Shown here: piece after piece, positions 1,609 through 19,567 of the stretch | How the letters are laid out: every line of letters begins with the position of its first letter | Numbering within the stretch: position 1 is the first letter of the stretch | Assembly (NCBI GenBank): GCA_041736805.1 | Contig: JBGSSW010000011.1 | Location: 18,395 to 82,394, forward strand | Source of the DNA: Minisyncoccia bacterium | Lineage (GTDB): Bacteria > Patescibacteriota > Minisyncoccia > Phycocordibacterales > UBA918 | Reading direction: 5' to 3' | DNA length: 64,000 bases | Position numbers and translations under genes: made by a program | Notes under the pieces: model-generated | Databases searched by the model: none | The model's input: only the letters and a program-made list of their open reading frames with translations | What the model was told of the DNA's origin: nothing

Positions 1609-1682
1609 ATTGACAACCTGTTAGTTGTGTGTTCCCACATGCTCGATGCCGAGCTGTGACCCACAAAGCTAGCGCGTTGCAA

Positions 1683-1710
1683 AAAGAGCGGCCTCGTGCC
1701 GCTTTTTTTG
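1683..1710. terminator. bidirectional rho-independent terminator between the tRNA and the minus-strand island genes
   Basis: A-run, then stem AGCGGC-CTCGT-GCCGCT, then TTTTTTT. Confidence 0.5.
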
Positions 1711-2280
1711 CTATTTGTTCACAAACTTTGCGACTATGCGACCGTGTATTTCGTGCATCTGATCTTCGCTGAATAGCTGATCGTATCTCCAAATCTTTCC
1801 TCCAAGAGAAAAAGCTTTTAGATACGCTTCGCAATAGATCCTTGGATTAATGACCAGAATGTCATCCCGTCTCTCCCATCCAAGTGTCGATTGGTAGTCG
1901 TACTCAATCCTGTGACCCATAGATCCGAGCCACTGGTGAGCGAGAATGTTCCGCCAATTATGAATATCCTCTGCGATTAAGGAGAATTTCAGATCGTCTG
2001 TATCTCCATCAACGAATGTTTCCAAGAATTGCTTGTAGTCCTTGAACATAGAATCAGGCTTGCCGTTAGCGAAGAACACCTCGCCTATGGTGAGTGCGGC
2101 TGCGTGTACGCCAAGAAACATCAGGGATGTTTGGTAGTGAGCGGGGGTGATCCCGATCTCGTTGTTGAAGTAATTTGCAATTGAGTTGAGTAACGTTTCA
2201 ATTGCTTCGACAGGATGACTCTTGAGTCGCTCTAGTCGATGTTCTTGTGACTCCGAATTGTGCGTGCGGTTTTTTCCCAT
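1711..2280 (-). CDS. hypothetical protein with HEPN-like R-x4-H motif (DIHNWRNILAHQW)
   Basis: 189-aa ORF. The motif W-R-N-x-L-A-H resembles the HEPN RNase signature Rx4-6H and recurs in the neighbouring gene. Confidence 0.4.
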   Translation of the reverse strand: MGKNRTHNSESQEHRLERLKSHPVEAIETLLNSIANYFNNEIGITPAHYQTSLMFLGVHAAALTIGEVFFANGKPDSMFKDYKQFLETFVDGDTDDLKFSLIAEDIHNWRNILAHQWLGSMGHRIEYDYQSTLGWERRDDILVINPRIYCEAYLKAFSLGGKIWRYDQLFSEDQMHEIHGRIVAKFVNK

Positions 2281-2284
2281 ATTT

Positions 2285-3127
2285 TTAAATTATTCTGTTA
2301 TCAATTTCGTGGAAGAGGTTGTTGATCATGATAAGCCGACCTAGTGCGTCGTGATGTGGAAGCTGATTTTCGTCGCCGTGGCTAAGATTATTCCTCCACC
2401 AATGCATGATGCCCATCACCGTCAACTTAAAGCCAAGCTGTTTGTTGACCTCCTGCGGTGTGGAAAGAGTGTTGAATTTTATCTTCGGATTTTGCTCGTT
2501 GAAAACGGTAGCCATCAGATCCGGACCTTGTTTATCATGAGTGCTTGTCAGATCTTGGACAGTTTTTTCAAATCGCTCAAGCGCTTTTCGTACGGACTCG
2601 TTGATATGTCCTTCAATGAACATCTTTTTGCAGTCAGGTAGCAATGATGGGTGAAGAGTATATGCATCCAGAATCTTCTGGATGGCGATTGGTGGCGGCA
2701 CCGTTCTCGGACGTTCCTTCGGAAGATTCATTGCCAATATTTCTTTCTCTAGGTCTATATTGAGAACCTTCAGTTTCAGATAAAGCTCAAGGGCTTCAGC
2801 TTCCAATACAGGCTCACCTTTCTCGTGACGCTTCTCTATAGCCTTGGGAAGTATCTCGCGCACGAGAATCTTTATTGTCCGAGGCTTATGGCAGTACAGA
2901 TTGCGAAGAAATTCGTAGAAGGCATCTTTTTTGTTTGAGGTCTTGGTTGAGAGATATTTACCGAGACCTCGTTCTTTGGCTATTGTGGTCAATGAAAACG
3001 AGCTGCGAAATCCTGAAAGCGAGATCAGTTTACCGAGCTGTTCCGCAAGCGCACGGATTGCCTGCGCTTGTGGCGCTGTGACTATCACTCTTTTCTTTGC
3101 AACCTTTTTCTTGATTTTCTTTTTCAT
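2285..3127 (-). CDS. HEPN-like protein (Abi_C / Ymh-like C-terminal domain; motif HWWRNNLSHGDE), Lys-rich N-terminus
   Basis: 280-aa ORF. The C-terminal W-R-N-x-L-S-H-G motif matches the HEPN Rx4-6H signature. The gene abuts another HEPN-motif gene in the same orientation. Confidence 0.45.
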   Translation of the reverse strand: MKKKIKKKVAKKRVIVTAPQAQAIRALAEQLGKLISLSGFRSSFSLTTIAKERGLGKYLSTKTSNKKDAFYEFLRNLYCHKPRTIKILVREILPKAIEKRHEKGEPVLEAEALELYLKLKVLNIDLEKEILAMNLPKERPRTVPPPIAIQKILDAYTLHPSLLPDCKKMFIEGHINESVRKALERFEKTVQDLTSTHDKQGPDLMATVFNEQNPKIKFNTLSTPQEVNKQLGFKLTVMGIMHWWRNNLSHGDENQLPHHDALGRLIMINNLFHEIDNRII

Positions 3128-3130
3128 AGA

Positions 3131-3661
3131 TTATTTGGTCGTATGCACATGGAATCCGCACGCCCGGCAGAGACCATTCATATTCGTGTTACCGTTGATA
3201 TGAAATTCAAAGTTTTCCTTACCACAAACAGGGCAAACCACACGACCGCCAGTGAGTTTCGTAGCATTAATCGTGTCCAGAACATCCCGCACGTCTCGTA
3301 CGTATTTGTTCACCTGCTCTCGATCATTTAAATAACCCTGCACCCACAGATTCGTTGTGATCCGCCCCGCTGACGTTTCCTTGTAGTGGATTTTCCCTTC
3401 GTTCAAAAGCTTCTCCCAGTACTGACGCGTCTTCCCGTACTCTCTGGCGACATCACCAGAGGACATGAGTGTCGCATTGTATGGAATGTAACCTTGAGCT
3501 TCCATATTTTCGACACAAGCACGAATACCTTCCGCAAGTGCGCTTTCTTTTTCTTCTTTGGAAAACTCACCAGTCAGATCAAGACCGAGGCTTAAAGTGC
3601 CGCCACTACTTGTATTGGCGTGCCAATAGAATTTTCGCTTGTCGTCCTTGGGTGCAGACAT
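3131..3661 (-). CDS. hypothetical protein with C-terminal CxxC...CxxC zinc ribbon
   Basis: 176-aa ORF ending ...VVCPVCGKENFEFHINGNTNMNGLCRACGFHV. No other recognisable motif. Confidence 0.45.
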   Translation of the reverse strand: MSAPKDDKRKFYWHANTSSGGTLSLGLDLTGEFSKEEKESALAEGIRACVENMEAQGYIPYNATLMSSGDVAREYGKTRQYWEKLLNEGKIHYKETSAGRITTNLWVQGYLNDREQVNKYVRDVRDVLDTINATKLTGGRVVCPVCGKENFEFHINGNTNMNGLCRACGFHVHTTK

Positions 3662-3704
3662 GCCACAAGTATATTCTCATTGGTTTCTAAATGCAACCAA
3701 TATC

Positions 3705-5057
3705 CTATTCCTCCAGCAAGGTAATCTGCTTGTCGTTCAGCACTAGTCTTGATCGTAAGTGTCCCATCAGTTCACGCTTCTCCAGTGGAGTACCCTCGCG
3801 GAGTACGTACTTCGCGTACTCTCTGGTTGCAATATCATCCTCGTCAATCTGCATCTTCGGCTTGCCTTTGGTCGCCAATCGTTGCAGTCGGTTGAATCGT
3901 TTAATTTCTTCTTCAAGTTTCATCCGCATACCAAGTTCGTTGATACTCACTTTGTCGATGACCTTGAAGAGTTCCTCCACCAGTTCTTCCTCACGGATGT
4001 ACTTGTTCTTGCAGTTTCTGTCTTTTGATTTTGAGCAAGAGTAGTAGATGTATTTGGCGTTCGTGCCGTCTTTTAGTTCTTTGTATTTTTCTTGCGCTGT
4101 TATCCCTGATCCGCACATACCGCAGGTGAAGAGTTTAGTGAAGGCGAACTCTCGGTTCCCTCGCACAATCTTATCTCGCTTCAGTTGCTCATTTACTTTC
4201 TTGAACAATTCTTCAGTGATAATAGGTTCATGTGCTCCTTGGTACCAGTTGCCACTGTTCTTTGGATATTCAAATGGTCCGTAGTAGATCGGCATTTGGA
4301 GCATGCGGTATACGCCACTTAAGGTGAGTGGTCGGTTTCCTCGCGTATGGAAGTTGAGATCAAAGCGGAGCCAGTTATATACCTTGCGCCCACTCCAGTG
4401 TTCATATGCCACCTTCTCAAACATTTGCTTTACGACCGGTGCACGCTCTGGATCTATGACGATCCGACACTTCCTGTCCATCAGCTTTTGATTGAGGTAC
4501 CCGAGTGGTGCCATGCCCGGCCATAGTCCCATCTCAACTCTTGTTCGTAGTCCTCGCTTCACGTTGATACCTCGGTTGTCGTTCTCAAGCTTTGCTTGTG
4601 ATCCGAGGATCATTAGGAGGAACTTCTCGTTGGGGTTGTTCCTAAAGCTCTGTCCAAAGGTACGTATCTCATGGAGCTTTCCCGCGTCCATCAAGTCCAC
4701 AATCTTTCCGAGGTCGCCTGCGTTTCTTGATATACGGTCTGGTGCCCAGGTGAGGATGCCGTTAAACTTGTTGTCTCTTAGTTCATCTATGATCTCGTTG
4801 AAGACCGGTCGTTGCCCAGTCTCCTTGGCTGAGTGTGATTCTCGCTTCATGGTCACGATCTCCAGACCCTCTCGTTCGGCGAGTTGGAGCATCTCACTGA
4901 TTTGTGAGTCGATGGACAGCACTTGCCGTTCCTCAGATTCACTACTTTTTCTTGCGTAGAGGCAGTATTTCACCCTTACAGGGATTGCTTCTGGTTTGAC
5001 CACCATTCCATGTGGCGCTTGTATTGTGTTATTCATACAGCTACATTGATGACGCAA
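3705..5057 (-). CDS. large serine recombinase (resolvase/invertase catalytic domain + recombinase domain + zinc ribbon)
   Basis: N-terminal YARKSSESEERQ..SIDSQ motif holds the catalytic serine. LTWAPDRISRN matches the resolvase R-x-SR motif. The C-terminal CGMCG...CSKSKDRNC is a zinc ribbon. The true start may be an internal Met (5036 or 5006). Confidence 0.85.
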   Translation of the reverse strand: MRHQCSCMNNTIQAPHGMVVKPEAIPVRVKYCLYARKSSESEERQVLSIDSQISEMLQLAEREGLEIVTMKRESHSAKETGQRPVFNEIIDELRDNKFNGILTWAPDRISRNAGDLGKIVDLMDAGKLHEIRTFGQSFRNNPNEKFLLMILGSQAKLENDNRGINVKRGLRTRVEMGLWPGMAPLGYLNQKLMDRKCRIVIDPERAPVVKQMFEKVAYEHWSGRKVYNWLRFDLNFHTRGNRPLTLSGVYRMLQMPIYYGPFEYPKNSGNWYQGAHEPIITEELFKKVNEQLKRDKIVRGNREFAFTKLFTCGMCGSGITAQEKYKELKDGTNAKYIYYSCSKSKDRNCKNKYIREEELVEELFKVIDKVSINELGMRMKLEEEIKRFNRLQRLATKGKPKMQIDEDDIATREYAKYVLREGTPLEKRELMGHLRSRLVLNDKQITLLEE

Positions 5058-5216
5058 ACCGCCCTAGGAGTCCAGAGCGTCCCGAGTGGGTAAGAGTTGG
5101 TAACCTTAGCCCATTAGGATTCTGATGTGTGCATATTTCTCTTTCGAATAAATGCACGGTGCGTCACAAATTCACGGTTTATATAAATACCAATACTGAT
5201 ACAATGTTTATTACAA

Positions 5217-7331
5217 ATGAGCCCACTAAAACAACTTTTTAACAACACTAGTAAATACAGAAATGCTATTACTAGATATAAGTATTTTCTCTCCGCACTG
5301 CTGATAGCTTTATTCTTTCTATCACTATGGATGACTGCTCAAGATGCTGATAAAAGATATAATTCACTTCTTTCGGTGACCATTTATGATCGAAATAACA
5401 CACCTCTTAGTATCAAAGAAAATGACAAAGGTCATTATGTGAGTTCTTTACAAACATTACCTGACGATTTTGCTCATCTCCTTATAGAAAAAGAAGACAA
5501 GTACTTTTACTACCATTTTGGAATCAATCCGTTCAGTACAGCAAGAGCTATGTACTACTATGTCATGGAAAGCAAGGCAGGTGGCGCGAGCACCATTACC
5601 CAACAACTTTCAAAAAATCTATTGGGCACTGAACTTAACAGGAATGTATTTAACAAATTACTTGAGGTTTTTTATAGCATTAGTATAGAGCTTTTTAATT
5701 CAAAGGAGGAAGTCTTAGTGATGTATGCGAACACGGTCTATTTGGGTAATCAAGTGCAAGGATTTCAAACTGGTAGTTATGCTTATTTTGACAAGCCGCT
5801 TATCGAAACTACGCATAATGAACGTATTTCACTTCTCGCAACGCTTTCATATCCAAACGCACGCAATCCATGGGAAGAAAAAAATAAAGACTTTGCAGAA
5901 AGTTTAAGTAAAAGAATTTCTCCGAATGAGATTTTTATTGAACCAGAAGCAACTGCTCGCTATTCATTTCAAAGTGAAACATTTTTTGAGCTAAAGTCCG
6001 CTGGAGTTACGTGTGAAGATACCTGTTATACTAGTGTTGATGACACACTCACAAAAAATATTCGAGGGATTCTCAAACGACATATTTCTGCTGAATGGGA
6101 GCGTGGAGCGAGAAACGGCGCAGTAGTCGTTATTAATCCACAGACCTCTGAAGTGCTTGCACTCGTGGGTAGCAAAAATCCAAAGAATGCAACTGGGGGA
6201 GATCAGATCAATATGGCTTTACAACCACGTCCAATTGGTTCAACAGTCAAACCTTTTATTTATCTTAAAGGATTTATTGACGGATTGCGTCCATATACAC
6301 TTGTAGACGACCGTGAATACAAGTACTCAATTGCAACAGGATTCCCTTTGTATCCCAAAAACTATGATGGACAATATCGTGGTGAAGTTACACTACACGA
6401 ATCATTAAGTAATAGCTTAAACGTACCCTCAGTGAAGGTTCTTGAGTATATTGGACTTCATAACTTCTACGCTTTTTTAAGTGAAAAACTCAAGTTTCAA
6501 CCGATACAAAGTTATGACAGCTACCAGTATGGCATCGCACTTGGTGGATTGGAAATGGATTTATTAACTCTTACACATTACTTCACAATATTTCCCCGCA
6601 TGGGTACTATAGAGCCGATACGTATTCTCAAGAATAACCCCGAAAACTACTCACTACCGCGACAGTCTGAAATACAAACAAAACAAACCGTATCAGACAA
6701 AAAATATACGCAACTAGTCCACGCGATAATCAGCGACCGTCTTTCTGGGGTAGATCAATTTGGTCTTGAGAGTACCCTCAATATTGATGCTAGTGATTAT
6801 GGATTAAAAACAGGCACATCAAGAGATTTCCACGATAGTTGGGTTGTGGGCTACACAGGAGATTTTGTTGTTGGGGTATGGATTGGGAACACTGAGAATG
6901 AACCTCTGAAACAAGTTACTGGCCAGTCGGGAGCTGGAGCAGTGTGGCACGATGTTATGGGTGTATTGCTCGAAACCACTTACAATAATAAGACTGCTAT
7001 ACCGAGAGACTTAGTGACACAGTTTCCAATTAAAAACTCAAATGAGTGGGGACTAATGGATGACAAAATTGATGATCATCGAATGCTTTTGTTAAGCGAT
7101 AATCTTATTCAAAGCCCATACAGCAATGACTCTTTCGAATTTTTTCAAGGTATAACCATACCTCTTAAAGGAGCGAAAGATTTGGAATGGTCAGTAAATG
7201 GGAAAGTGGTCGGTTTCGGTAAAGATATAGTGTTTCATCCTGATAGTAGTGCAACTTACGAAATCATAGCATTAGATAAAGAATCGAATCGCCGTGAAAT
7301 CATTCAAATATCTGTTATTAATCCTCAGTAA
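5217..7331 (+). CDS. class A penicillin-binding protein (GT51 transglycosylase + transpeptidase), PBP1C-like
   Basis: The GT51 motif GGASTITQQLSKN is present. Transpeptidase motifs are STVKPF (SxxK), SLSNS (SxN) and KTGTS (KTG). It is convergent with, and overlaps by 14 bp, an alpha-2-macroglobulin gene, as in the known PBP1C–A2M linkage. Confidence 0.8.
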   Translation: MSPLKQLFNNTSKYRNAITRYKYFLSALLIALFFLSLWMTAQDADKRYNSLLSVTIYDRNNTPLSIKENDKGHYVSSLQTLPDDFAHLLIEKEDKYFYYHFGINPFSTARAMYYYVMESKAGGASTITQQLSKNLLGTELNRNVFNKLLEVFYSISIELFNSKEEVLVMYANTVYLGNQVQGFQTGSYAYFDKPLIETTHNERISLLATLSYPNARNPWEEKNKDFAESLSKRISPNEIFIEPEATARYSFQSETFFELKSAGVTCEDTCYTSVDDTLTKNIRGILKRHISAEWERGARNGAVVVINPQTSEVLALVGSKNPKNATGGDQINMALQPRPIGSTVKPFIYLKGFIDGLRPYTLVDDREYKYSIATGFPLYPKNYDGQYRGEVTLHESLSNSLNVPSVKVLEYIGLHNFYAFLSEKLKFQPIQSYDSYQYGIALGGLEMDLLTLTHYFTIFPRMGTIEPIRILKNNPENYSLPRQSEIQTKQTVSDKKYTQLVHAIISDRLSGVDQFGLESTLNIDASDYGLKTGTSRDFHDSWVVGYTGDFVVGVWIGNTENEPLKQVTGQSGAGAVWHDVMGVLLETTYNNKTAIPRDLVTQFPIKNSNEWGLMDDKIDDHRMLLLSDNLIQSPYSNDSFEFFQGITIPLKGAKDLEWSVNGKVVGFGKDIVFHPDSSATYEIIALDKESNRREIIQISVINPQ

Positions 7332-10300
7332 CAGTAACGATGCCCCCCGAAGTTCTACCAAAGACCTCTGGGAAGTAAAGCTCTTCTGCACGAGCTGGAA
7401 GATGCTGGAAAGTACCTGGAATAAGTGCACGTAAGTAATACTCATACTCATATACACCTGGTTCCAGTCTTTCGACATAGAGAAACACTCTATCATCATG
7501 AGACTCAACGTGCGTTGGGTATAGTTTGCGATTTTCTTTTGAGTAAACGCCTCCAGAACTAAATGATCCGTATACCTGTGCTACTTGGGAATCGCTAAAT
7601 ATATTCTTTACTGAACCAAAAACACTCGCCGTAAAGTTTGAATTACCAGCGGACCATTCGTCATATACATCTTCTTGCTTATTCAATGACTGATCCTCAG
7701 TGCTCAAGTTAAAATTAACAATCTCAAACCCTGCTGGGATGAAGTCTTCGACCGCAACATTTTGATATTCGTCTGGAATAGTAATGGTCAATTTTCCACG
7801 GACGACATCTCCGACAGATACAGTTTGTAAACTTTCTGAATCACGCTCGTCACTAAGAGCATATAAATCTCTTGTTATAGTGATACCTTCGTCTCTTGGG
7901 GGGAGAGAATCAACAGGAAGGTAATACTTGAGCGACATGTCATAATACAAATTGTTCTCTCGACCATTCTTGTCTTCTTTTTCAAAAGCTAACGGTAGTA
8001 ACTTTTCTTTCGGTAATGCATCAATTGAAACAAAATGAGTAAACGTCTCGAAAACGGTCTTTGGATTAAATTCAAAACCAAATATCTCGACTCCATCTAG
8101 CAATCCTCGTAGGGTGAAGTGTGATTCAGTCTCGTGTTGCCATTTAAGATAATCAACCATGGCGCTCACTACTGTAAATGTATTGTGCGTACTGCCCCAA
8201 ACACCCTGATGATCACGGCTAGCGAGTAGCCACCTAAGCATATTTGGTAGAGTCTCATGTTCGTCTTCGTGAGCTGCAAATACTGCCACAGCAAGTGCTG
8301 TATTTTTAATAGGTGTCTCATAAAAGTCTCTATTTGAATGTTCGGTACTTGCGAGGTATGCTCCACGACCATCAATATCGATACGATTTTGGAATGCATC
8401 ATAAACCCTATTACGATCACTTCTACTGTAATCTTTAGATGTCAGGATTGCGAGGTAAGCAAGTGACATACTACTAATTTTCTCATTGAGGAAGGAGTCA
8501 TCTTTGATCAAAGTTATAACAATATCAGTAAGTGAGGTTTTGGTTTCTGGTGAAATCTTTCTGAGAACAGATTCTGCAAGAATCACTGTCTCGTTATTCT
8601 GATCTGGATATTGAGTATATAGTCGCTTTGTTTCAGATTCGATGTATCCAATACCTCGACTTAATACATCTTCACGTATTTCGTATCCAGCCATCTTTAA
8701 GTCATATAAAGCAGATACAACATGGATAGTAAGTGACAAGTTTGCATTCAGTCCTTTGTAGTATGCAAAACCACCACCAAGCGTTTGAGCTTCGTATACT
8801 TGTTTAAGACCATCAGTGACTACATTTTCAACTGTATACGTCACTCCATCGTGCTCGATAGTGTCAAATTCTCCTTCAACATTTGGCAATGTGAGTGCTT
8901 CTGTCAAAATACCAATAGTACTAAGCGAACTTGCCAATTGTTCACTGCAACCGTATGGATACGTAACCATGTACGACAACGCGTCAGTCATGAAGACTGC
9001 CATGGTAGCGTTAGCATTTATAGTGAGACCACCTTCACCATCAACTACTGTATCCGGTACATATAAATATTCTACGGCAGTGTCATCTTTTGTAGCATTT
9101 GCAGTTGCAACTGTTTCATAAGTCTTATTAGGTGTTATTGCAATTGATTGCTCTACACTATCAACAAAGGTATTAGCTTTATCAGAAGCAGTGAATGTAA
9201 ATACATGCTCACCAGCTCGCATTGTCTCTGGCGCTTCAACATCAAAGTAAACTGTTTTAGATTCTCCAGGGTTAATAAAGACAGACTCACTAGCATCACC
9301 CTTGAAGGCAAGTGTTTTACTCTCTAGAGTAACGGAAATCTCTTTACCGTCCGCTGTCTGATTAAATATTTTTGCTCCCAACGAGAAGACGTCCCCCGGT
9401 ACCACAAATCGTGGTTTAAGTGGTACAGCCATTAAATCTTTTTTGGTTGTAAATTCTTGATAATCAACACCCAGCTTAGTGTCTTTAGTAACACCTAGTG
9501 ATTCTATCTGCCACGTCGTCAAATTATCAGGTAGAGTGAAAGTAACACTCGCATCTCCGTTTTGATTAGTCTCTACCGATGCCTCCCAGAAAGCTGTATC
9601 CTTAAATACCCCTCGCTTTTTCTTGGCCAAGTCATCAGGCTCTGCTCCACCACCACCCTTAGTACCAAGAGGGATATCCACCTCGTGGAGAATATTTTTT
9701 ATATTACTTGCAGTGGTCACTGATAGTGGAAATCCGTTATAGAAAAATACGAGAGGATTTTTCTTTGGATTACCTTTTAGAGCAAGTACCGAAAGATCTG
9801 CAACAGCAACGGACACTTCGGCAGGGACACCTTGTCCTTGATGATTTTTAGTTTTAACTGTAAGTTTGACCTCCTCACCGGGTAAGTAGTGTGTTTTATT
9901 CGCAGTCACCTCCACTGAAAGCTCCTTCTCCTGCGTCCCAATATTGTAGTAAACGTTTCCGTATTTGACCTCAGGATCAGATGAAAGCAACAAGACTGAG
10001 ACATATACGTTAGGTGAATACTCACTTTTAATTGGGAACTTGTGGGAGTAAAGTCCTCCTATTACATCAACTATCCAATAGTCATACACTGTTCCGCGCT
10101 CTACTGAAATAAGTGCTTTTGCTTTTGGATATGGAGATTTGATTAAAACTGATGCTTCGTCGCCAACATCTAAATCAGTCTTATCGACTTCGAGATCGAG
10201 CTCATAATTATTATTTGGAGGAACAGTGACAGAGCCTGAACCATATATGTATACATTCGCAACAGTTTTAAGTTTATTGCCTTTATCGTCAGCTCCTGTC

Positions 10301-13300
10301 ACATGCACTTCGTACTGACCTTCAGTTGAAATCGAGAGATTTCCACTCCAGTCACCTTTGTTATCAGTCTTAACTTTTTCTCGATTAATCTCCGTTAGCT
10401 TTTTCTCAGACCGATAGTAAAAACCTCCGTCAACTTCTTGTCGTTTAAAAGTTTCCCATTCGACCTTGTAAAGGGTTTTTTCAATGTTGCCGATTGATAC
10501 GGGTTTTCCCTCCGTAGTAACAGTCTTCACACGAAGAGTGTTTGGAGAGTTAACACTTGTATAGTATTCATCTGTCTTCACGCCGAGATAAAATTCTCCC
10601 TTATGGACGACGAAAGATTTCTGTAGCGATACAGACCTGCCGTTAACGTCTTTTGCTGTTACTGACACCGTAACAAGCTTACTGCCTTCGCTCTCCACAT
10701 CATCAAAGTAGTCATCGAAATTGAACGTACGCTCAATAGTAGCCCGTCCATTTTCGTCAATCGTCGTCTCTCCTCTAAATAAGAAGTTGTCACCATAACC
10801 ACATGAGTAGCAGGAGTACCAATCACTACCGAAATTAAAGTAATCATCAGTGTATCTGTCGAAGTAATAGTCCTGCGCTGTAACAGCATAAGAAATTGCA
10901 CCCTCATCAAGTGGTACACCGAAATAGTAGTCTGCTTGAACATCAACCTTGAAGGTATCTCCATTTGTGTACTCCTCTTTATTTGTTGTAGCCTCTAGTT
11001 TGAATGCGGCTGGAACATATTCTTCAACATCAAAGTAAAAGCTCTGCCCGAACACTTCGATTCGGTAGGTTCCGAGAGGGGCATCACTCGGTATATCAAG
11101 TTTCGTTGAAAACGTTCCGTAAAGATTCTGTTCCAGATTTGTGTCGTAAATTCGAGCGCCTTGAGAATCAAATACTTCTAGAGATACCTTTTCTCTGTTC
11201 CAGACTTCATACTTTCCATCAAAACCAATGCGATCAATGCCTCGTATATTTACAGTGTGTCCAGGACGATAAATAGGCCTATCAGTATACACGTAGGTCT
11301 TGGAAGCATCTTGCGCAGGACTCGCATTACGTAGTGTGTCAGCCCAGTCAGTAATAACGGCGCTATCAAGTCCTGATTTAATCACTGCCCCACCTAATCC
11401 TTCATGAATCGCAACTCGTGCAATTCCTTGACCGTCAGTGACTCCTGAAGTTTTTTGTCCAAAATTACGATTGTACCCACCTTCAAATTGTGTGACCACT
11501 GCACCTGCAACTGGCAAAAGGGTCTTGTTGTTACTGATCCAATACAGGTTACTGGACGCACCCAACTCTTTCGTAAGGATGTTATCTTTACTTGGATTAC
11601 TGGAAACGCTCCAGGCTTCGTCAGAGTATTCGATCTCTTTTTTGCCTACGGCAAGATTCGTTACGCTTACATATGTTCTGTCAAATAATTGACGATTTTC
11701 ATATGTCTCTTTGTATAAAGGATTACTAAACGTCAATACGTAATGACCACGAGTATCAGAAAAATATTCAGTAAGATTAATTTGGAAGTAGTTATTGACC
11801 CAGTATCGAATCGGTAGTGGTATTTGCTTAGTGATTACTTCAATACATCCATCACTACGTGCGGGAGTATATTGATCATCGCGATCAATAGTTCGTGCAA
11901 GAAATGTCTCAGGGCTCATCTTGCAAATATGCATATCCACATACTCAAGATTCTCAACCGCGTACGTGAACTTAGACTTGTCCGGAGAGGTTACATTATA
12001 TTGCTGTTGCATATTATGGAACCGTGTGTACTGCTCTTTGGGTGGACTGGTTCTAAACGACAATTGATTTGATGCTTGCTGTCCAAAAACATCTACTGGT
12101 TTTACCTCTAAACTATAATTAGTCTCTGGTAGCAAACCATACGACAGCCGAGTTTCAAATTCTCCAGCTTGACATTTGTTATAAGAATTCTGAGATTCAA
12201 CATAGAAAGAATTAGACCAGCGCCCGAATACTATGTAGCCGTCAGTTTGTACATACGAATCTAGCCCGTCATCTTCAGGGTCTCGTAGAGGAGTGTTGGA
12301 ACAGATAGTTATTCCATCAAGATCAGCACTTGTTGATTGATTTTGAGGGAGTGAGCGGAGTATTTGGAATGCCGGATAACTCTTAAGTGCGATATTTATT
12401 GGCTCTGCATTGATACGAAAACCTTCCTTTGTAAGCACTTTCTTCAACTCAAGATTAAATGATTCGTTCACTCCGATCGCGCTTGGTTCAAAAGAAAATA
12501 TCAGTGTTTTTGTATCAGACTCTTTCTCACACGTTGATCCAAGTTGAATAGGTTCACCATTTTCGTCAGTCTTACATCGCTCTCCATAGGAAATATTTTT
12601 AAGCCCCTTAACTCCGATACTTGATTGATCTTTATCTATATCATCAAAAAAAGTTACTGTTACAGTGCCTTGTGGGTCAACTAAATCTGGACGAACGAGT
12701 GACGTACGATCTGACTGAGCAGTAACACTTTCAACGATATTAGCTACTGAAACTACGGTGTTTTTTCCCTCTTCTAAGTTCATTGTTCCGACAAAGGGTG
12801 TGGCGCCAGTCACAGATACTGAATAGGTGGTATCAAAATCCCAGAGTCGACTACGACCGTGAGCATCTTTTTTCTGATACACAAACAACTTACTCTTGTC
12901 TTCGTTTGTAATATATTTACGATCGCTTCTGTCATAGACAGTTACCTCACCGTATTCGACTTCGATTGAAACTTTACTGCCATCAGATTTTGAAACAGTA
13001 ATCTCCTTTTCAGTTTGACTTAAATCCACTGGCTGATTAAAAGCAATAATGATAGGTGAACTGTATCCGATTTGTTCTGTGGAGACATTTTCATAGCGAA
13101 GGGGGCGCGTTACAAAAGTATGGGTTACTGGAGCGACTGGCAGACCATCAAGAGAATAAAAACCACCCTTTACTTCAACTGTATATTTTGATGATGGAAT
13201 GAGAGTAGTTTCAGGTATAAATTGCAAATTTCTGGTACTAATCCATTTAAATTTACCTGGTGTTGGAGGAGATATGGTGATTGGTAGTTCAATTGATTCT

Positions 13301-13917
13301 TGCTCTGTTAGCGTTGTGAGTGGAACCATTGGACGATTGAAGACAATGGTGATTTCGCTATCTTCATGAGCTTCACTGAGTGAAGCTGGAAAAATTGTCT
13401 CAATTTTAGGATCTTCGTCAACGTAAAAATCTCCTGACATCTGGACAGAGCCCGTGTCCATATTGACTGCATAGTAGACTTTCGTACGAAGTGGTTTTTT
13501 TGGCTTAAATGAGACAACTCTTTCGAGATCCTCTGTCTGCCACTCTCCTTCGACTTCAGGACTAAAAGTAATGCTGGCACGCGCAACATCTTCGCTTACA
13601 CCTTCTGGGAGGTTGATTTGAATTGAAGCACTTTTTGATATTTTTTCCGGAACAAAGGAGTAAACATTTGTAAACTGCTTTACTGCCACATGCCTATCCT
13701 GCGTAGCATAAAAGAAAAGTGCTGCCCCAACAAAAATAAGAATTCCTAGAGCTATTAAAAATGGCGCCCTTTTACGTCCTAGCATTTTTAATGCATTTAG
13801 GAATTTCTGTTTAATTGATAGTTTTTCGGAGGTAGGAAGTACTGTCGGCAAAACTTGTTCAGTTGGTTGCGAATCAGGGACAGTGACTTTAGATGTAAAA
13901 TCTTCTTGTGAATCCAT
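7318..13917 (-). CDS. bacterial alpha-2-macroglobulin family protein (2199 aa) with thioester motif and N-terminal TM anchor
   Basis: MVTYPYGCSEQLASSL contains the CxEQ thioester signature. The size and repeated beta-rich (MG-like) domains fit the A2M family. The N-terminus has one TM helix (FLIALGILIFVGAALFFYA) and no lipobox. The gene pairs with a PBP gene. Confidence 0.75.
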   Translation of the reverse strand: MDSQEDFTSKVTVPDSQPTEQVLPTVLPTSEKLSIKQKFLNALKMLGRKRAPFLIALGILIFVGAALFFYATQDRHVAVKQFTNVYSFVPEKISKSASIQINLPEGVSEDVARASITFSPEVEGEWQTEDLERVVSFKPKKPLRTKVYYAVNMDTGSVQMSGDFYVDEDPKIETIFPASLSEAHEDSEITIVFNRPMVPLTTLTEQESIELPITISPPTPGKFKWISTRNLQFIPETTLIPSSKYTVEVKGGFYSLDGLPVAPVTHTFVTRPLRYENVSTEQIGYSSPIIIAFNQPVDLSQTEKEITVSKSDGSKVSIEVEYGEVTVYDRSDRKYITNEDKSKLFVYQKKDAHGRSRLWDFDTTYSVSVTGATPFVGTMNLEEGKNTVVSVANIVESVTAQSDRTSLVRPDLVDPQGTVTVTFFDDIDKDQSSIGVKGLKNISYGERCKTDENGEPIQLGSTCEKESDTKTLIFSFEPSAIGVNESFNLELKKVLTKEGFRINAEPINIALKSYPAFQILRSLPQNQSTSADLDGITICSNTPLRDPEDDGLDSYVQTDGYIVFGRWSNSFYVESQNSYNKCQAGEFETRLSYGLLPETNYSLEVKPVDVFGQQASNQLSFRTSPPKEQYTRFHNMQQQYNVTSPDKSKFTYAVENLEYVDMHICKMSPETFLARTIDRDDQYTPARSDGCIEVITKQIPLPIRYWVNNYFQINLTEYFSDTRGHYVLTFSNPLYKETYENRQLFDRTYVSVTNLAVGKKEIEYSDEAWSVSSNPSKDNILTKELGASSNLYWISNNKTLLPVAGAVVTQFEGGYNRNFGQKTSGVTDGQGIARVAIHEGLGGAVIKSGLDSAVITDWADTLRNASPAQDASKTYVYTDRPIYRPGHTVNIRGIDRIGFDGKYEVWNREKVSLEVFDSQGARIYDTNLEQNLYGTFSTKLDIPSDAPLGTYRIEVFGQSFYFDVEEYVPAAFKLEATTNKEEYTNGDTFKVDVQADYYFGVPLDEGAISYAVTAQDYYFDRYTDDYFNFGSDWYSCYSCGYGDNFLFRGETTIDENGRATIERTFNFDDYFDDVESEGSKLVTVSVTAKDVNGRSVSLQKSFVVHKGEFYLGVKTDEYYTSVNSPNTLRVKTVTTEGKPVSIGNIEKTLYKVEWETFKRQEVDGGFYYRSEKKLTEINREKVKTDNKGDWSGNLSISTEGQYEVHVTGADDKGNKLKTVANVYIYGSGSVTVPPNNNYELDLEVDKTDLDVGDEASVLIKSPYPKAKALISVERGTVYDYWIVDVIGGLYSHKFPIKSEYSPNVYVSVLLLSSDPEVKYGNVYYNIGTQEKELSVEVTANKTHYLPGEEVKLTVKTKNHQGQGVPAEVSVAVADLSVLALKGNPKKNPLVFFYNGFPLSVTTASNIKNILHEVDIPLGTKGGGGAEPDDLAKKKRGVFKDTAFWEASVETNQNGDASVTFTLPDNLTTWQIESLGVTKDTKLGVDYQEFTTKKDLMAVPLKPRFVVPGDVFSLGAKIFNQTADGKEISVTLESKTLAFKGDASESVFINPGESKTVYFDVEAPETMRAGEHVFTFTASDKANTFVDSVEQSIAITPNKTYETVATANATKDDTAVEYLYVPDTVVDGEGGLTINANATMAVFMTDALSYMVTYPYGCSEQLASSLSTIGILTEALTLPNVEGEFDTIEHDGVTYTVENVVTDGLKQVYEAQTLGGGFAYYKGLNANLSLTIHVVSALYDLKMAGYEIREDVLSRGIGYIESETKRLYTQYPDQNNETVILAESVLRKISPETKTSLTDIVITLIKDDSFLNEKISSMSLAYLAILTSKDYSRSDRNRVYDAFQNRIDIDGRGAYLASTEHSNRDFYETPIKNTALAVAVFAAHEDEHETLPNMLRWLLASRDHQGVWGSTHNTFTVVSAMVDYLKWQHETESHFTLRGLLDGVEIFGFEFNPKTVFETFTHFVSIDALPKEKLLPLAFEKEDKNGRENNLYYDMSLKYYLPVDSLPPRDEGITITRDLYALSDERDSESLQTVSVGDVVRGKLTITIPDEYQNVAVEDFIPAGFEIVNFNLSTEDQSLNKQEDVYDEWSAGNSNFTASVFGSVKNIFSDSQVAQVYGSFSSGGVYSKENRKLYPTHVESHDDRVFLYVERLEPGVYEYEYYLRALIPGTFQHLPARAEELYFPEVFGRTSGGIVTVTED

Positions 13918-18982: not shown

Positions 18983-19235
18983 ACCTCCATATTATATCTT
19001 AAAAATTACTTCACGAAAATTGGCATTTGTTGGCATTTGGGACACACTCCAAAACGCCCTTGGTGTGTCTCATCTGTCTCATTCTCGAGAAAGAGACCCC
19101 GACCCACAAACCTCAAATTCTTCAAGGAAAAAGTGCTAGAATACCCTTATGTTGCTTGGAGCTGTGGGTACCATACCCGAGTACACCGCAGCAGTAGAAA
19201 GAAAAGGCTTGCCTGCGTACTGCTGCGGGAACCAG

Positions 19236-19305
19236 AACGATGTGAGTTTACGAACGAGTGGCAAAACAATGTTTAGACATTGTTTTGCGGGTTGAGAGTA
19301 CTTAG
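19236..19305. repeat. structured repeat family A, copy 1 (GAACGATGTGAGTTTACGAACGAGTGGCAAAACAATGT-TTAG-ACATTGTTTTGCGGGTTGAGA)
   Basis: ~88% identical to 37321–37382. It contains an 11-bp hairpin CAAAACAATGT/ACATTGTTTTG. The second copy has base changes in the stem that keep the pairing, with one mismatch. Confidence 0.6.
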
Positions 19306-19567
19306 ATTTTTATAAGCGTGCGCGACATTGTTTTCTTATGAGCTGGCGAACTATAAAACAAGAAGTACCCTTGTGGTGAAATAAAAAGCTTAGTAACTCG
19401 TGACCGCATGCGGGAGCCGCAGAGATGTCTTCTTTTTCTTCAAAAAAGAAGACTGCGAGGTGGTTTCAAGAAAGCTTAATATATTTGCAGTCGAAGACGA
19501 ATAAATATACCAAGTGGTCTGTGACCGCTAGAGTGACCTAGCTCATCTGATGAATGATTATGTACAC

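Follow-up and report, generated by a model that had tools for sequence, protein, structure and literature searches.

Characterised HEPN RNases act as homodimers, and their active sites are generally made from two HEPN domains. The marks of the HEPN superfamily have been given as an Rx4-6H motif, a polar residue directly after the arginine and an upstream E-x3-[KR] motif, and the Ymh family (PF09509) is listed among the HEPN families with a conserved Rx4-6H, its members being solo proteins or fusions in restriction-modification and abortive-infection contexts (Anantharaman et al. 2013, PMC3710099). A second described system is AbiV from Lactococcus (PDB 9bj7), a 201-amino-acid (aa) homodimeric HEPN RNase whose RN-type motif (91-97) sits in a flexible stretch in the middle of the protein, ahead of a beta-hairpin (141-151) and two core helices at the C-terminus (bioRxiv 10.1101/2024.05.05.592566). 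Here we analysed a stretch of 64,000 nucleotides (nt), referred to as the window, from contig JBGSSW010000011.1 of a Minisyncoccia bacterium of the candidate phyla radiation (CPR)/Patescibacteria. Two adjacent genes on its minus strand encode a 189-aa protein that belongs to no known family, which we call F189 (1711-2280), and a 280-aa protein of the Ymh/TIGR02391 HEPN family, called Ymh below (2285-3127). Our preferred reading, to which we assign a probability of about 0.6, is that these are two independent HEPN-type modules that came to stand side by side on one serine-recombinase island through modular assembly. Two distinct HEPN domains in adjacent genes are not in themselves new; what is new is F189, the founder of an undescribed CPR-restricted HEPN-like family, together with its role in marking miniature defence-carrying islands.

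The first-pass annotation of this DNA had noticed that both adjacent proteins contain the motif WRNxLxH and had proposed that they are not paralogues outside it. Translation confirmed the exact positions of the motif, WRNILAH in F189 (1936-1956, minus strand; residues 109-115) and WRNNLSH in Ymh (2378-2398, minus strand; residues 244-250). The pattern WRN.L.H matched exactly twice among the 165 six-frame open reading frames (ORFs) of the window that are 60 aa or longer, once in each protein, while approximately 0.0007 matches were expected from the amino acid composition. The heptad shared by the two proteins is not a product of chance. When F189 was compared with Ymh by BLASTP the motif alone aligned (E 0.19), and hhalign comparison of the two families gave a probability of 6%, out of register, or of 1%, over 13 motif columns only, when a more diverse F189 alignment was used. 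Judged by these alignments the two families have nothing in common beyond the motif, as had been proposed. The annotation had put the motif near a C-terminal helix in both proteins; in F189 it does not lie near the C-terminus but in the middle of the protein, with 74 residues after it. As a signature WRNxLxH held in part, since R, N and H are invariant in the extended F189 family and W and L are variable there. We also considered the W of 'WRN' as a common signature of both families and rejected it because of this variability within the F189 family.

The HEPN affiliation of Ymh is firm. Its residues 158-273, the C-terminal HEPN domain (2309-2656, minus strand), matched Pfam PF09509 (Hypoth_Ymh) with an E-value of 1.4e-20 and 73.8 bits (cut-off 25), and the protein matched NCBIfam TIGR02391 (E 1.4e-13, 51 bits, cut-off 39.45) and the PADLOC models Aga_HEPN (E 9e-10) and PD-Lambda-3_B (E 5e-8). 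In an alignment of 34 full-length homologues with 41-88% identity (alignment A2), N246, H250, E177 and K181 were invariant and R245 was conserved in at least 90% of the sequences. The protein thus carries R245-N246-x3-H250 together with a second, upstream HEPN motif, E177-x3-K181. By these matches it is an ordinary member of the known Ymh/TIGR02391 HEPN family, encoded like other members by a solo gene in a defence or mobile context, and adds nothing new to it. The AlphaFold2 (AF2) model of Ymh had a predicted local distance difference test score (pLDDT) of 86.7, and residues 158-276 were all-helical at a pLDDT of about 90. The N-terminal part differs from what has been described for the family. 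It forms a conserved helical domain reaching to approximately residue 157 (alignment A2) that matched no model in the profile libraries searched and is not among the described fusions (pMORC, AbiJ-NTD1, AbiTii). The first-pass annotation had pointed to a Lys-rich N-terminus as a possible nucleic-acid-binding tail. This tail (3089-3127, minus strand; residues 1-13) is present and its composition is conserved: 33 of the 34 homologues have a net charge between +6 and +13 in their first 25 residues. Ymh as a whole has a strongly basic character (pI 9.8, net +17), and its HEPN domain is neutral. The conserved N-terminal charge and the basic character of the whole protein support the idea, and nucleic acid is probably bound by the basic N-domain together with the Lys tail.

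Even at E<=1, nothing in Pfam, NCBIfam, PHROG or PADLOC matched F189. Its close homologues number 158, with 53-88% identity, almost all of them from CPR/Patescibacteria metagenome bins, and a profile search of 1.84 billion representative proteins recovered 130 clusters only (50% identity), so that the family appears small and sharply bounded; it includes a subfamily of 215-224 aa. Neither this search nor a second, alignment-based one returned a protein with a Pfam annotation, which left F189 unconnected to any named family, and profile searches against PDB sequences with the F189 and Ymh family profiles gave no match. F189 was not found in IMG/VR viral contigs, INPHARED phages or PLSDB plasmids. 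In the close family 36 of the 189 positions are invariant. In an alignment of 44 family members reaching down to 26% identity (alignment A3) the invariant positions are R110, N111, H115, G134 and N145 only. Since the R-N-x3-H core is invariant across this alignment, we regard it as the defining feature of the F189 family, and it gives the 44 sequences an Rx4-6H motif with a polar residue after the arginine.

The AF2 model of F189 was confident (pLDDT 86.5, predicted template modelling score 0.84). It consists of helices 12-21, 23-48, 51-69, 77-90, 99-107 and 109-117, the last of which bears the motif, followed by a small beta-meander (125-144) and helices 146-156, 162-168 and 172-187. In a Foldseek search of the PDB with this model AbiV occupied ranks 1-3 (9bj7, best E 0.15, probability 0.57), and the next matches were the sacsin HEPN domain and HepT toxins. 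When the 44 family members were compared with Pfam at E<=10, HEPN_Swt1 was the sole family matched more than once (4 of 44, best E 0.011, sub-threshold), and one further member matched another HEPN family. The HEPN_Swt1 matches are probably not independent of the motif itself. The HEPN-type reading that the first-pass annotation had offered for both proteins is therefore firm for Ymh and only probable for F189, where the invariant RNxxxH, the top fold matches and the weak HEPN_Swt1 matches speak for it. We consider it likely, not proven, that F189 is a divergent, AbiV-like HEPN domain. A search of the BFVD viral library returned as best fold match of F189 the 170-aa protein A0A0H4TI24 (probability 0.96, TM 0.47-0.51, E 0.25), which could be a phage-borne F189 relative.

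F189 and AbiV are of similar size (189 and 201 aa), they have the same order of elements, with the RN motif in a less well-ordered part in the middle of the protein, a beta-hairpin and two C-terminal core helices, and both are small stand-alone proteins in a defence context. However, there is no sequence or profile similarity between them, and PF18728 was unmatched by all 44 F189 members at E<=10. AbiV depends on abiV2, an antitoxin RNA encoded upstream of it, whereas the flanks of F189 showed no conserved non-coding element in the 62-66 loci compared; AbiV has a large positive patch, whereas F189 is acidic. By these comparisons F189 is not a member of the AbiV family of type III toxin-antitoxin systems. 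HepT toxins are active as homodimers. The HepT-MntA system (HEPN-MNT, type VII toxin-antitoxin) resembles our proteins in having a small HEPN toxin with Rx4H, and HepT was among the weak fold matches of both models, but no nucleotidyltransferase match was found among the four island genes and neither protein matched DUF86/HepT profiles.

Whether F189 and Ymh form a pair was judged from their distribution. The 26 genome and 46 metagenome loci with F189 relatives and the contigs from an exact-protein look-up gave 68 unique loci (fetched loci carry L numbers below). F189 and Ymh occurred together in 4 of the 68, and the remaining 64 were without Ymh. Ymh was found upstream of F189 only in the window's own lineage, in L036 (the same element), L051 and L055, where the gene order was recombinase-P176-Ymh-F189, P176 being a 176-aa protein encoded directly upstream of Ymh. 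Six independent contexts of Ymh (L037, L038, L040-43, L090, L091, L092) contained F189 in no case. The genes of the lineage diverged to different extents: between L055 and the window the identity was 87% for Ymh, 71% for P176 and 72% for the recombinase, but 54% for F189. The closest relatives of the window F189 (87%; L007, L010) are located in loci without Ymh, and the nearest relatives of the L055 F189 (64-65%) sit after a patatin gene. Because co-occurrence is rare, divergence is incongruent and the relatedness of F189 does not follow Ymh, the two genes resemble shuffled modules and not a matched pair. The pairing is not conserved, and the patterns in the compared loci do not fit a heterodimer whose partners evolve together or a toxin with a dedicated regulator. 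The gene that Ymh is repeatedly paired with is P176 and not F189; P176 followed by Ymh was found in L036, L037, L051 and L055, with P176 homologues at L037:4465-4995, L051:4557-5165 and L055:1219-1749 and 71-91% identity across loci. In L051 F189 is split into the overlapping ORFs 6001-6420 and 6305-6571 (span 6001-6571), while the recombinase, P176 and Ymh are intact; the split represents either a frameshift (pseudogene) or an assembly error. The genes downstream of the Ymh homologues in L038 (191 aa), L040 (169 aa) and L090 (184 aa) were tried as cryptic F189 relatives and proved not related.

The four minus-strand ORFs of the window are tightly packed, with gaps of 43, 3 and 4 nt between the recombinase, P176, Ymh and F189. 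The first gene of this four-gene operon (3705-5057, minus strand) encodes a large serine recombinase of 450 aa with the domains Resolvase, Recombinase and Zn_ribbon_recom and a match to the PHROG 95 integrase (5e-67); it is followed by P176 (3131-3661, minus strand), which ends in a CxxC...CxxC zinc ribbon, by Ymh and by F189. The stop codon of F189 is abutted by a bidirectional terminator with a 14-bp stem, found by a terminator scan (1679-1711). This terminator belongs to the island-end spacer (1609-1711), which has the conserved blocks TTGACAACCTGTTAG and TGTGACCCACAAAGCTA in alignment A4 and leads to a tRNA-Ser gene on the plus strand (1521-1608; ARAGORN; Rfam tRNA, 51.7 bits), in the 3' part of which the island is inserted. 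On the recombinase side the island end (5058-5106) was placed by alignment A5, in which the similarity to L051 stops near 5100-5110, approximately 50 nt upstream of the recombinase start. With both ends mapped in this way, the island measures about 3.5 kb (approximately 1609-5106). A tRNA-Ser gene adjoins F189 in the window, L007, L010, L011 and L055, with anticodons that vary by locus. Alignment A4 shows that L007, L010 and L011 share a conserved T-arm, 3' acceptor part and spacer of about 100 nt, whereas the 5' parts of the tRNA and the anticodons differ, which argues for insertion into the 3' end of tRNA-Ser genes. A search for long direct repeats of attachment (att) type at the island gave none, the one repeat being a 12-nt partial copy of the tRNA end; the lack of long att repeats is expected for a serine recombinase. 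This partial duplicate of the 3' end of tRNA-Ser (1594-1605 and 1633-1644; TCCCACATCCTC and TCCCACATGCTC) lies 39 nt downstream of the tRNA; it may have been left by an earlier insertion or may belong to the attachment site. Of the island genes F189 is the closest to the predicted attachment site, and in two island lineages it is the closest to the island end. A recombinase of the same family was present within 3 kb of F189 in 10 of the 25 unique loci whose flanks extend for 3 kb or more in either direction, and minimal islands consisting of the recombinase and F189 alone were found in L001 and L011.

The gene upstream of F189 was co-directional with it in 49 of 54 loci, at a median gap of 11 nt, and the 47 upstream partners fell into 39 unrelated BLAST clusters; operons of cyclic-oligonucleotide-based antiphage signalling systems (CBASS) are among what precedes F189. 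Annotated partners were a CHAT protease, a trypsin-like protease, patatin, SLATT_4, Cap15, SMODS-AGS_C, Shedu SduA_C, an OLD-type ATPase-TOPRIM protein, an ABC-3C ATPase (DUF2326), DUF5677 (three times), a TraG-like ATPase, M23 and GreA/B; in some loci the partner was the recombinase itself. In several loci a complete system stood ahead of F189, among them SMODS with Cap15 (L032), SMODS-AGS_C with SLATT (L031), patatin with SMODS (L076), a Cap2-like E1/E2/JAB protein with patatin (L046), SMEK with ABC-3C (L035) and a helicase with STAND (L014). PADLOC gave no match for ten unannotated upstream partners. A -10-like (TATAAT-like) hexamer with its end 4-14 nt ahead of the F189 start codon was seen in 20 of 66 loci, among them L011 (7985-8000), L022, L053, L056 and L066, as compared with 1-11 loci at control offsets, which suggests that F189 often has its own promoter and is leaderless or nearly so. 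Apart from AT-rich, -10-like boxes, no upstream element was conserved across the family in the 62-66 loci, and downstream of F189 no family-wide non-coding element was detected in them, conservation there being confined to single island lineages. Like the known defence-cargo hotspots of small integrative elements (P2/P4-type, SCCmec-linked), F189 elements have a recombinase and one or more backbone genes flanking a slot with unrelated defence systems. They differ from these in being tiny (2-4 kb), in occurring in CPR, in using a large serine recombinase and in inserting at tRNA-Ser or beside a putative small-RNA promoter, and the flank gene is itself HEPN-like.

In the reading that we prefer, two independent HEPN-type modules brought together by modular assembly, a ~3.5-kb integrative island sits at the 3' end of tRNA-Ser in a CPR/Patescibacteria-type genome and forms a single minus-strand operon running from the large serine recombinase through P176, the Ymh HEPN protein and F189 to the terminator. 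P176 and Ymh would constitute a mobile cargo cassette of the abortive-infection type, and F189 would belong to the backbone of the island family or be its terminal gene. Each protein would most likely be a homodimer with a composite HEPN site built from two copies of its own R/H motif, and each could cleave RNA in a metal-independent manner when triggered, for instance by phage infection or island loss. The comparisons show the motifs, the family to which Ymh belongs, the conservation pattern of F189, the anatomy of the island and the lack of a conserved pairing; the RNase activity of either protein and the homodimerisation are inferred from established HEPN biochemistry, and the trigger and the role in defence or addiction are likewise inferred. 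F189 in particular is a probable RNase on its sequence and model. Several observations weigh against this reading. The canonical upstream E-x3-[KR] is absent from F189, which has E10-x4-R15 and D91 instead, E10 being invariant in the close family and R15 conserved in at least 90% of the wide family. F189 is mildly acidic (pI 5.9, net -6), which is not expected of an RNA-binding enzyme, and its identity of at least 50% across CPR classes is unusually high conservation for a defence gene; acidity and strong conservation together are atypical of defence toxins. No HEPN profile exceeded the threshold for F189 in Pfam, NCBIfam or PADLOC, nor in the hhalign comparison with Ymh, and no significant fold match was found in the PDB (best E 0.15, TM 0.3-0.46). 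In the same Foldseek search, however, the model of the bona fide HEPN protein Ymh fared worse, reaching HEPN structures at E 3-6 only, with HepT among its weak matches; since a genuine HEPN model scores worse, the search is insensitive to HEPN, and the lack of fold significance for F189 says little. No antitoxin, regulator protein or RNA element was conserved beside F189 in the loci examined. Finally, the two proteins may still interact in this lineage, given the 4-nt spacing, the recurrence of Ymh followed by F189 in three lineages and the opposite net charges of +17 and -6.

The last of these observations are also what favours the two explanations offered by the first-pass annotation, namely that F189 and Ymh form a HEPN heterodimer with a composite site, or that one is a toxin and the other its dedicated regulator or antitoxin. 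The genes are adjacent in one operon, the gene order is the same in L051 and L055, one protein is acidic and the other basic, and HEPN active sites are generally made of two HEPN domains (as in AbiV and sacsin dimers). Both explanations nevertheless have against them the co-occurrence in one island lineage only, 4 of 68 loci, the six Ymh contexts without F189, the 87% versus 54% identity in L055 and the F189 of L051, which appears frameshifted while Ymh is intact. With the nearest F189 relatives in loci without Ymh and P176 as the recurrent Ymh partner, we take this explanation to be the least probable of those weighed here. Hardly more credible is the view that the motif is functionally meaningless in F189, a non-HEPN helical protein in which a coincidence was reinforced by local helix-forming preferences. 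It would account for the missing significant link, structural or by profile, from F189 to any HEPN family and for the variability of W and L of the motif in the wider family, but R-N-x3-H supplies three of only five invariant positions in 44 sequences diverged to 26% identity, the full pattern is expected by chance at ~0.0007, HEPN proteins head the fold list and the only Pfam families matched recurrently are HEPN families.

The position of F189 in the islands allows for other roles. F189 might be an accessory of the serine recombinase (a directionality factor or DNA-binding protein) and not a nuclease, the H-x-W-R-N-x-x-A-H-Q-W helix and the hairpin serving as a winged-helix-like element; in one dimension helices 99-107 and 109-117 and strands 135-144 do resemble a helix-turn-helix plus wing. 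The recombinase within 3 kb in 40% of the full-flank loci, the minimal islands and the closeness of F189 to the attachment site agree with this role. We nevertheless find it quite improbable, as the other 60% of these loci have no such recombinase, F189 is acidic, the top fold matches contain HEPN proteins but no winged-helix or helix-turn-helix protein, no helix-turn-helix profile matched even at E<=10, and the invariance of R, N and H is a catalytic-type HEPN pattern. PrrC backs up a restriction system, and by this model F189 might be a constant module or slot anchor that works with the upstream effector operon, for example as a back-up suicide RNase, Ymh being one interchangeable partner. 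The co-directional neighbours at short gaps, the large variety of partners, of which many are complete or partial defence systems (SMODS+Cap15, SMODS+SLATT, ABC-3C, STAND, OLD, Shedu, CHAT), and the terminal position of F189 in two island lineages are in line with this. But F189 also stands directly after the recombinase without an effector (L001, L011, L022) or divergent from the recombinase (L007, L010), the -10-like box in 20 of 66 loci suggests a promoter of its own, some upstream genes are not defence genes (GreA/B, TraG-like, M23, Replic_Relax) and short gaps are common anyway in compact CPR genomes, and we consider such a constant module unlikely. Somewhat less doubtful, though still speculative, is the broader proposal that F189 is the hallmark of undescribed miniature CPR islands (a large serine recombinase plus a HEPN-like terminal gene) whose 5' slot captures unrelated defence operons (CBASS, ABC-3C, OLD, Shedu, CHAT, Ymh), with F189 as a universal co-effector, a fail-safe RNase or a slot-defining factor.

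CPR/Patescibacteria are uncultivated and host-dependent, and their immunity and mobile elements are poorly charted. F189 is a compact, very strongly conserved and unannotated family with a HEPN catalytic signature that marks the ends of tiny recombinase islands. Because it adjoins a large variety of defence operons, it could help to find defence cargo in CPR metagenomes, partner genes not yet known among it. Should F189 turn out to be an RNase, it would extend the HEPN toxins on their AbiV-like branch. The locus also provides a caution that a short catalytic motif common to adjacent genes need not imply joint function.

The repeated pairing with P176, an unannotated zinc-ribbon protein, is a second feature in which Ymh differs from the described members of its family. 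P176 itself gave weak zinc-ribbon matches only in profile scans and has no place in an annotated family; the sequence of its middle part resembles a helix-turn-helix of the excisionase type, which no profile backs. A possible counterpart of the P176-Ymh cassette is PD-lambda-3, which behaves as an abortive-infection system (PMC13190303). The PADLOC model of its component B aligned to the HEPN domain of Ymh, and the two-gene arrangement with a small upstream partner is similar. However, the similarity is at the domain level only, P176 has no match to the A component and membership is not established.

The tRNA-Ser gene at the island end was called with the anticodon ACT (loop TTACTAA, 5-bp stem) in three independent loci, the window, L007 (4693-4780) and L055 (3238-3327); in sister loci this position is occupied by tRNA-Ser(TGA) or tRNA-Ser(GGA). 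The anticodon ACT is unusual for bacteria.

In another island lineage a tandem TGTCNCWTT repeat was found 40-60 nt after F189, and the same repeat occurs after the Ymh gene in L038. The repeat is part of a conserved promoter-like region. Within the window, where this region is also present, the intergenic region 18983-19549 (especially 19020-19295) contains TTGGCATTTG twice in tandem, TGTCTCAT twice in tandem, GACCCACAAACCTCAAAT and a -10-like TAGAAT. After these repeats, near 19.1 kb, there is a candidate for a strongly folding RNA of about 150 nt (z -4.6) with a terminator hairpin at its end, which gave no Rfam match even at E<=1. Of the 92 fetched loci, 11 have the TGTCNCWTTTGTCNCWTT repeat and the 5' part of the RNA candidate at 40-60 nt after an F189 or Ymh gene, so that the promoter side and the 5' part are conserved directly downstream of such genes in other genomes, and the 19.1-kb region may be a conserved CPR small-RNA gene that acts as a second insertion site of the islands. 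Elsewhere in the window, a 2199-aa ORF (7318-13917, minus strand) lies directly downstream of a 704-aa ORF (5217-7331).

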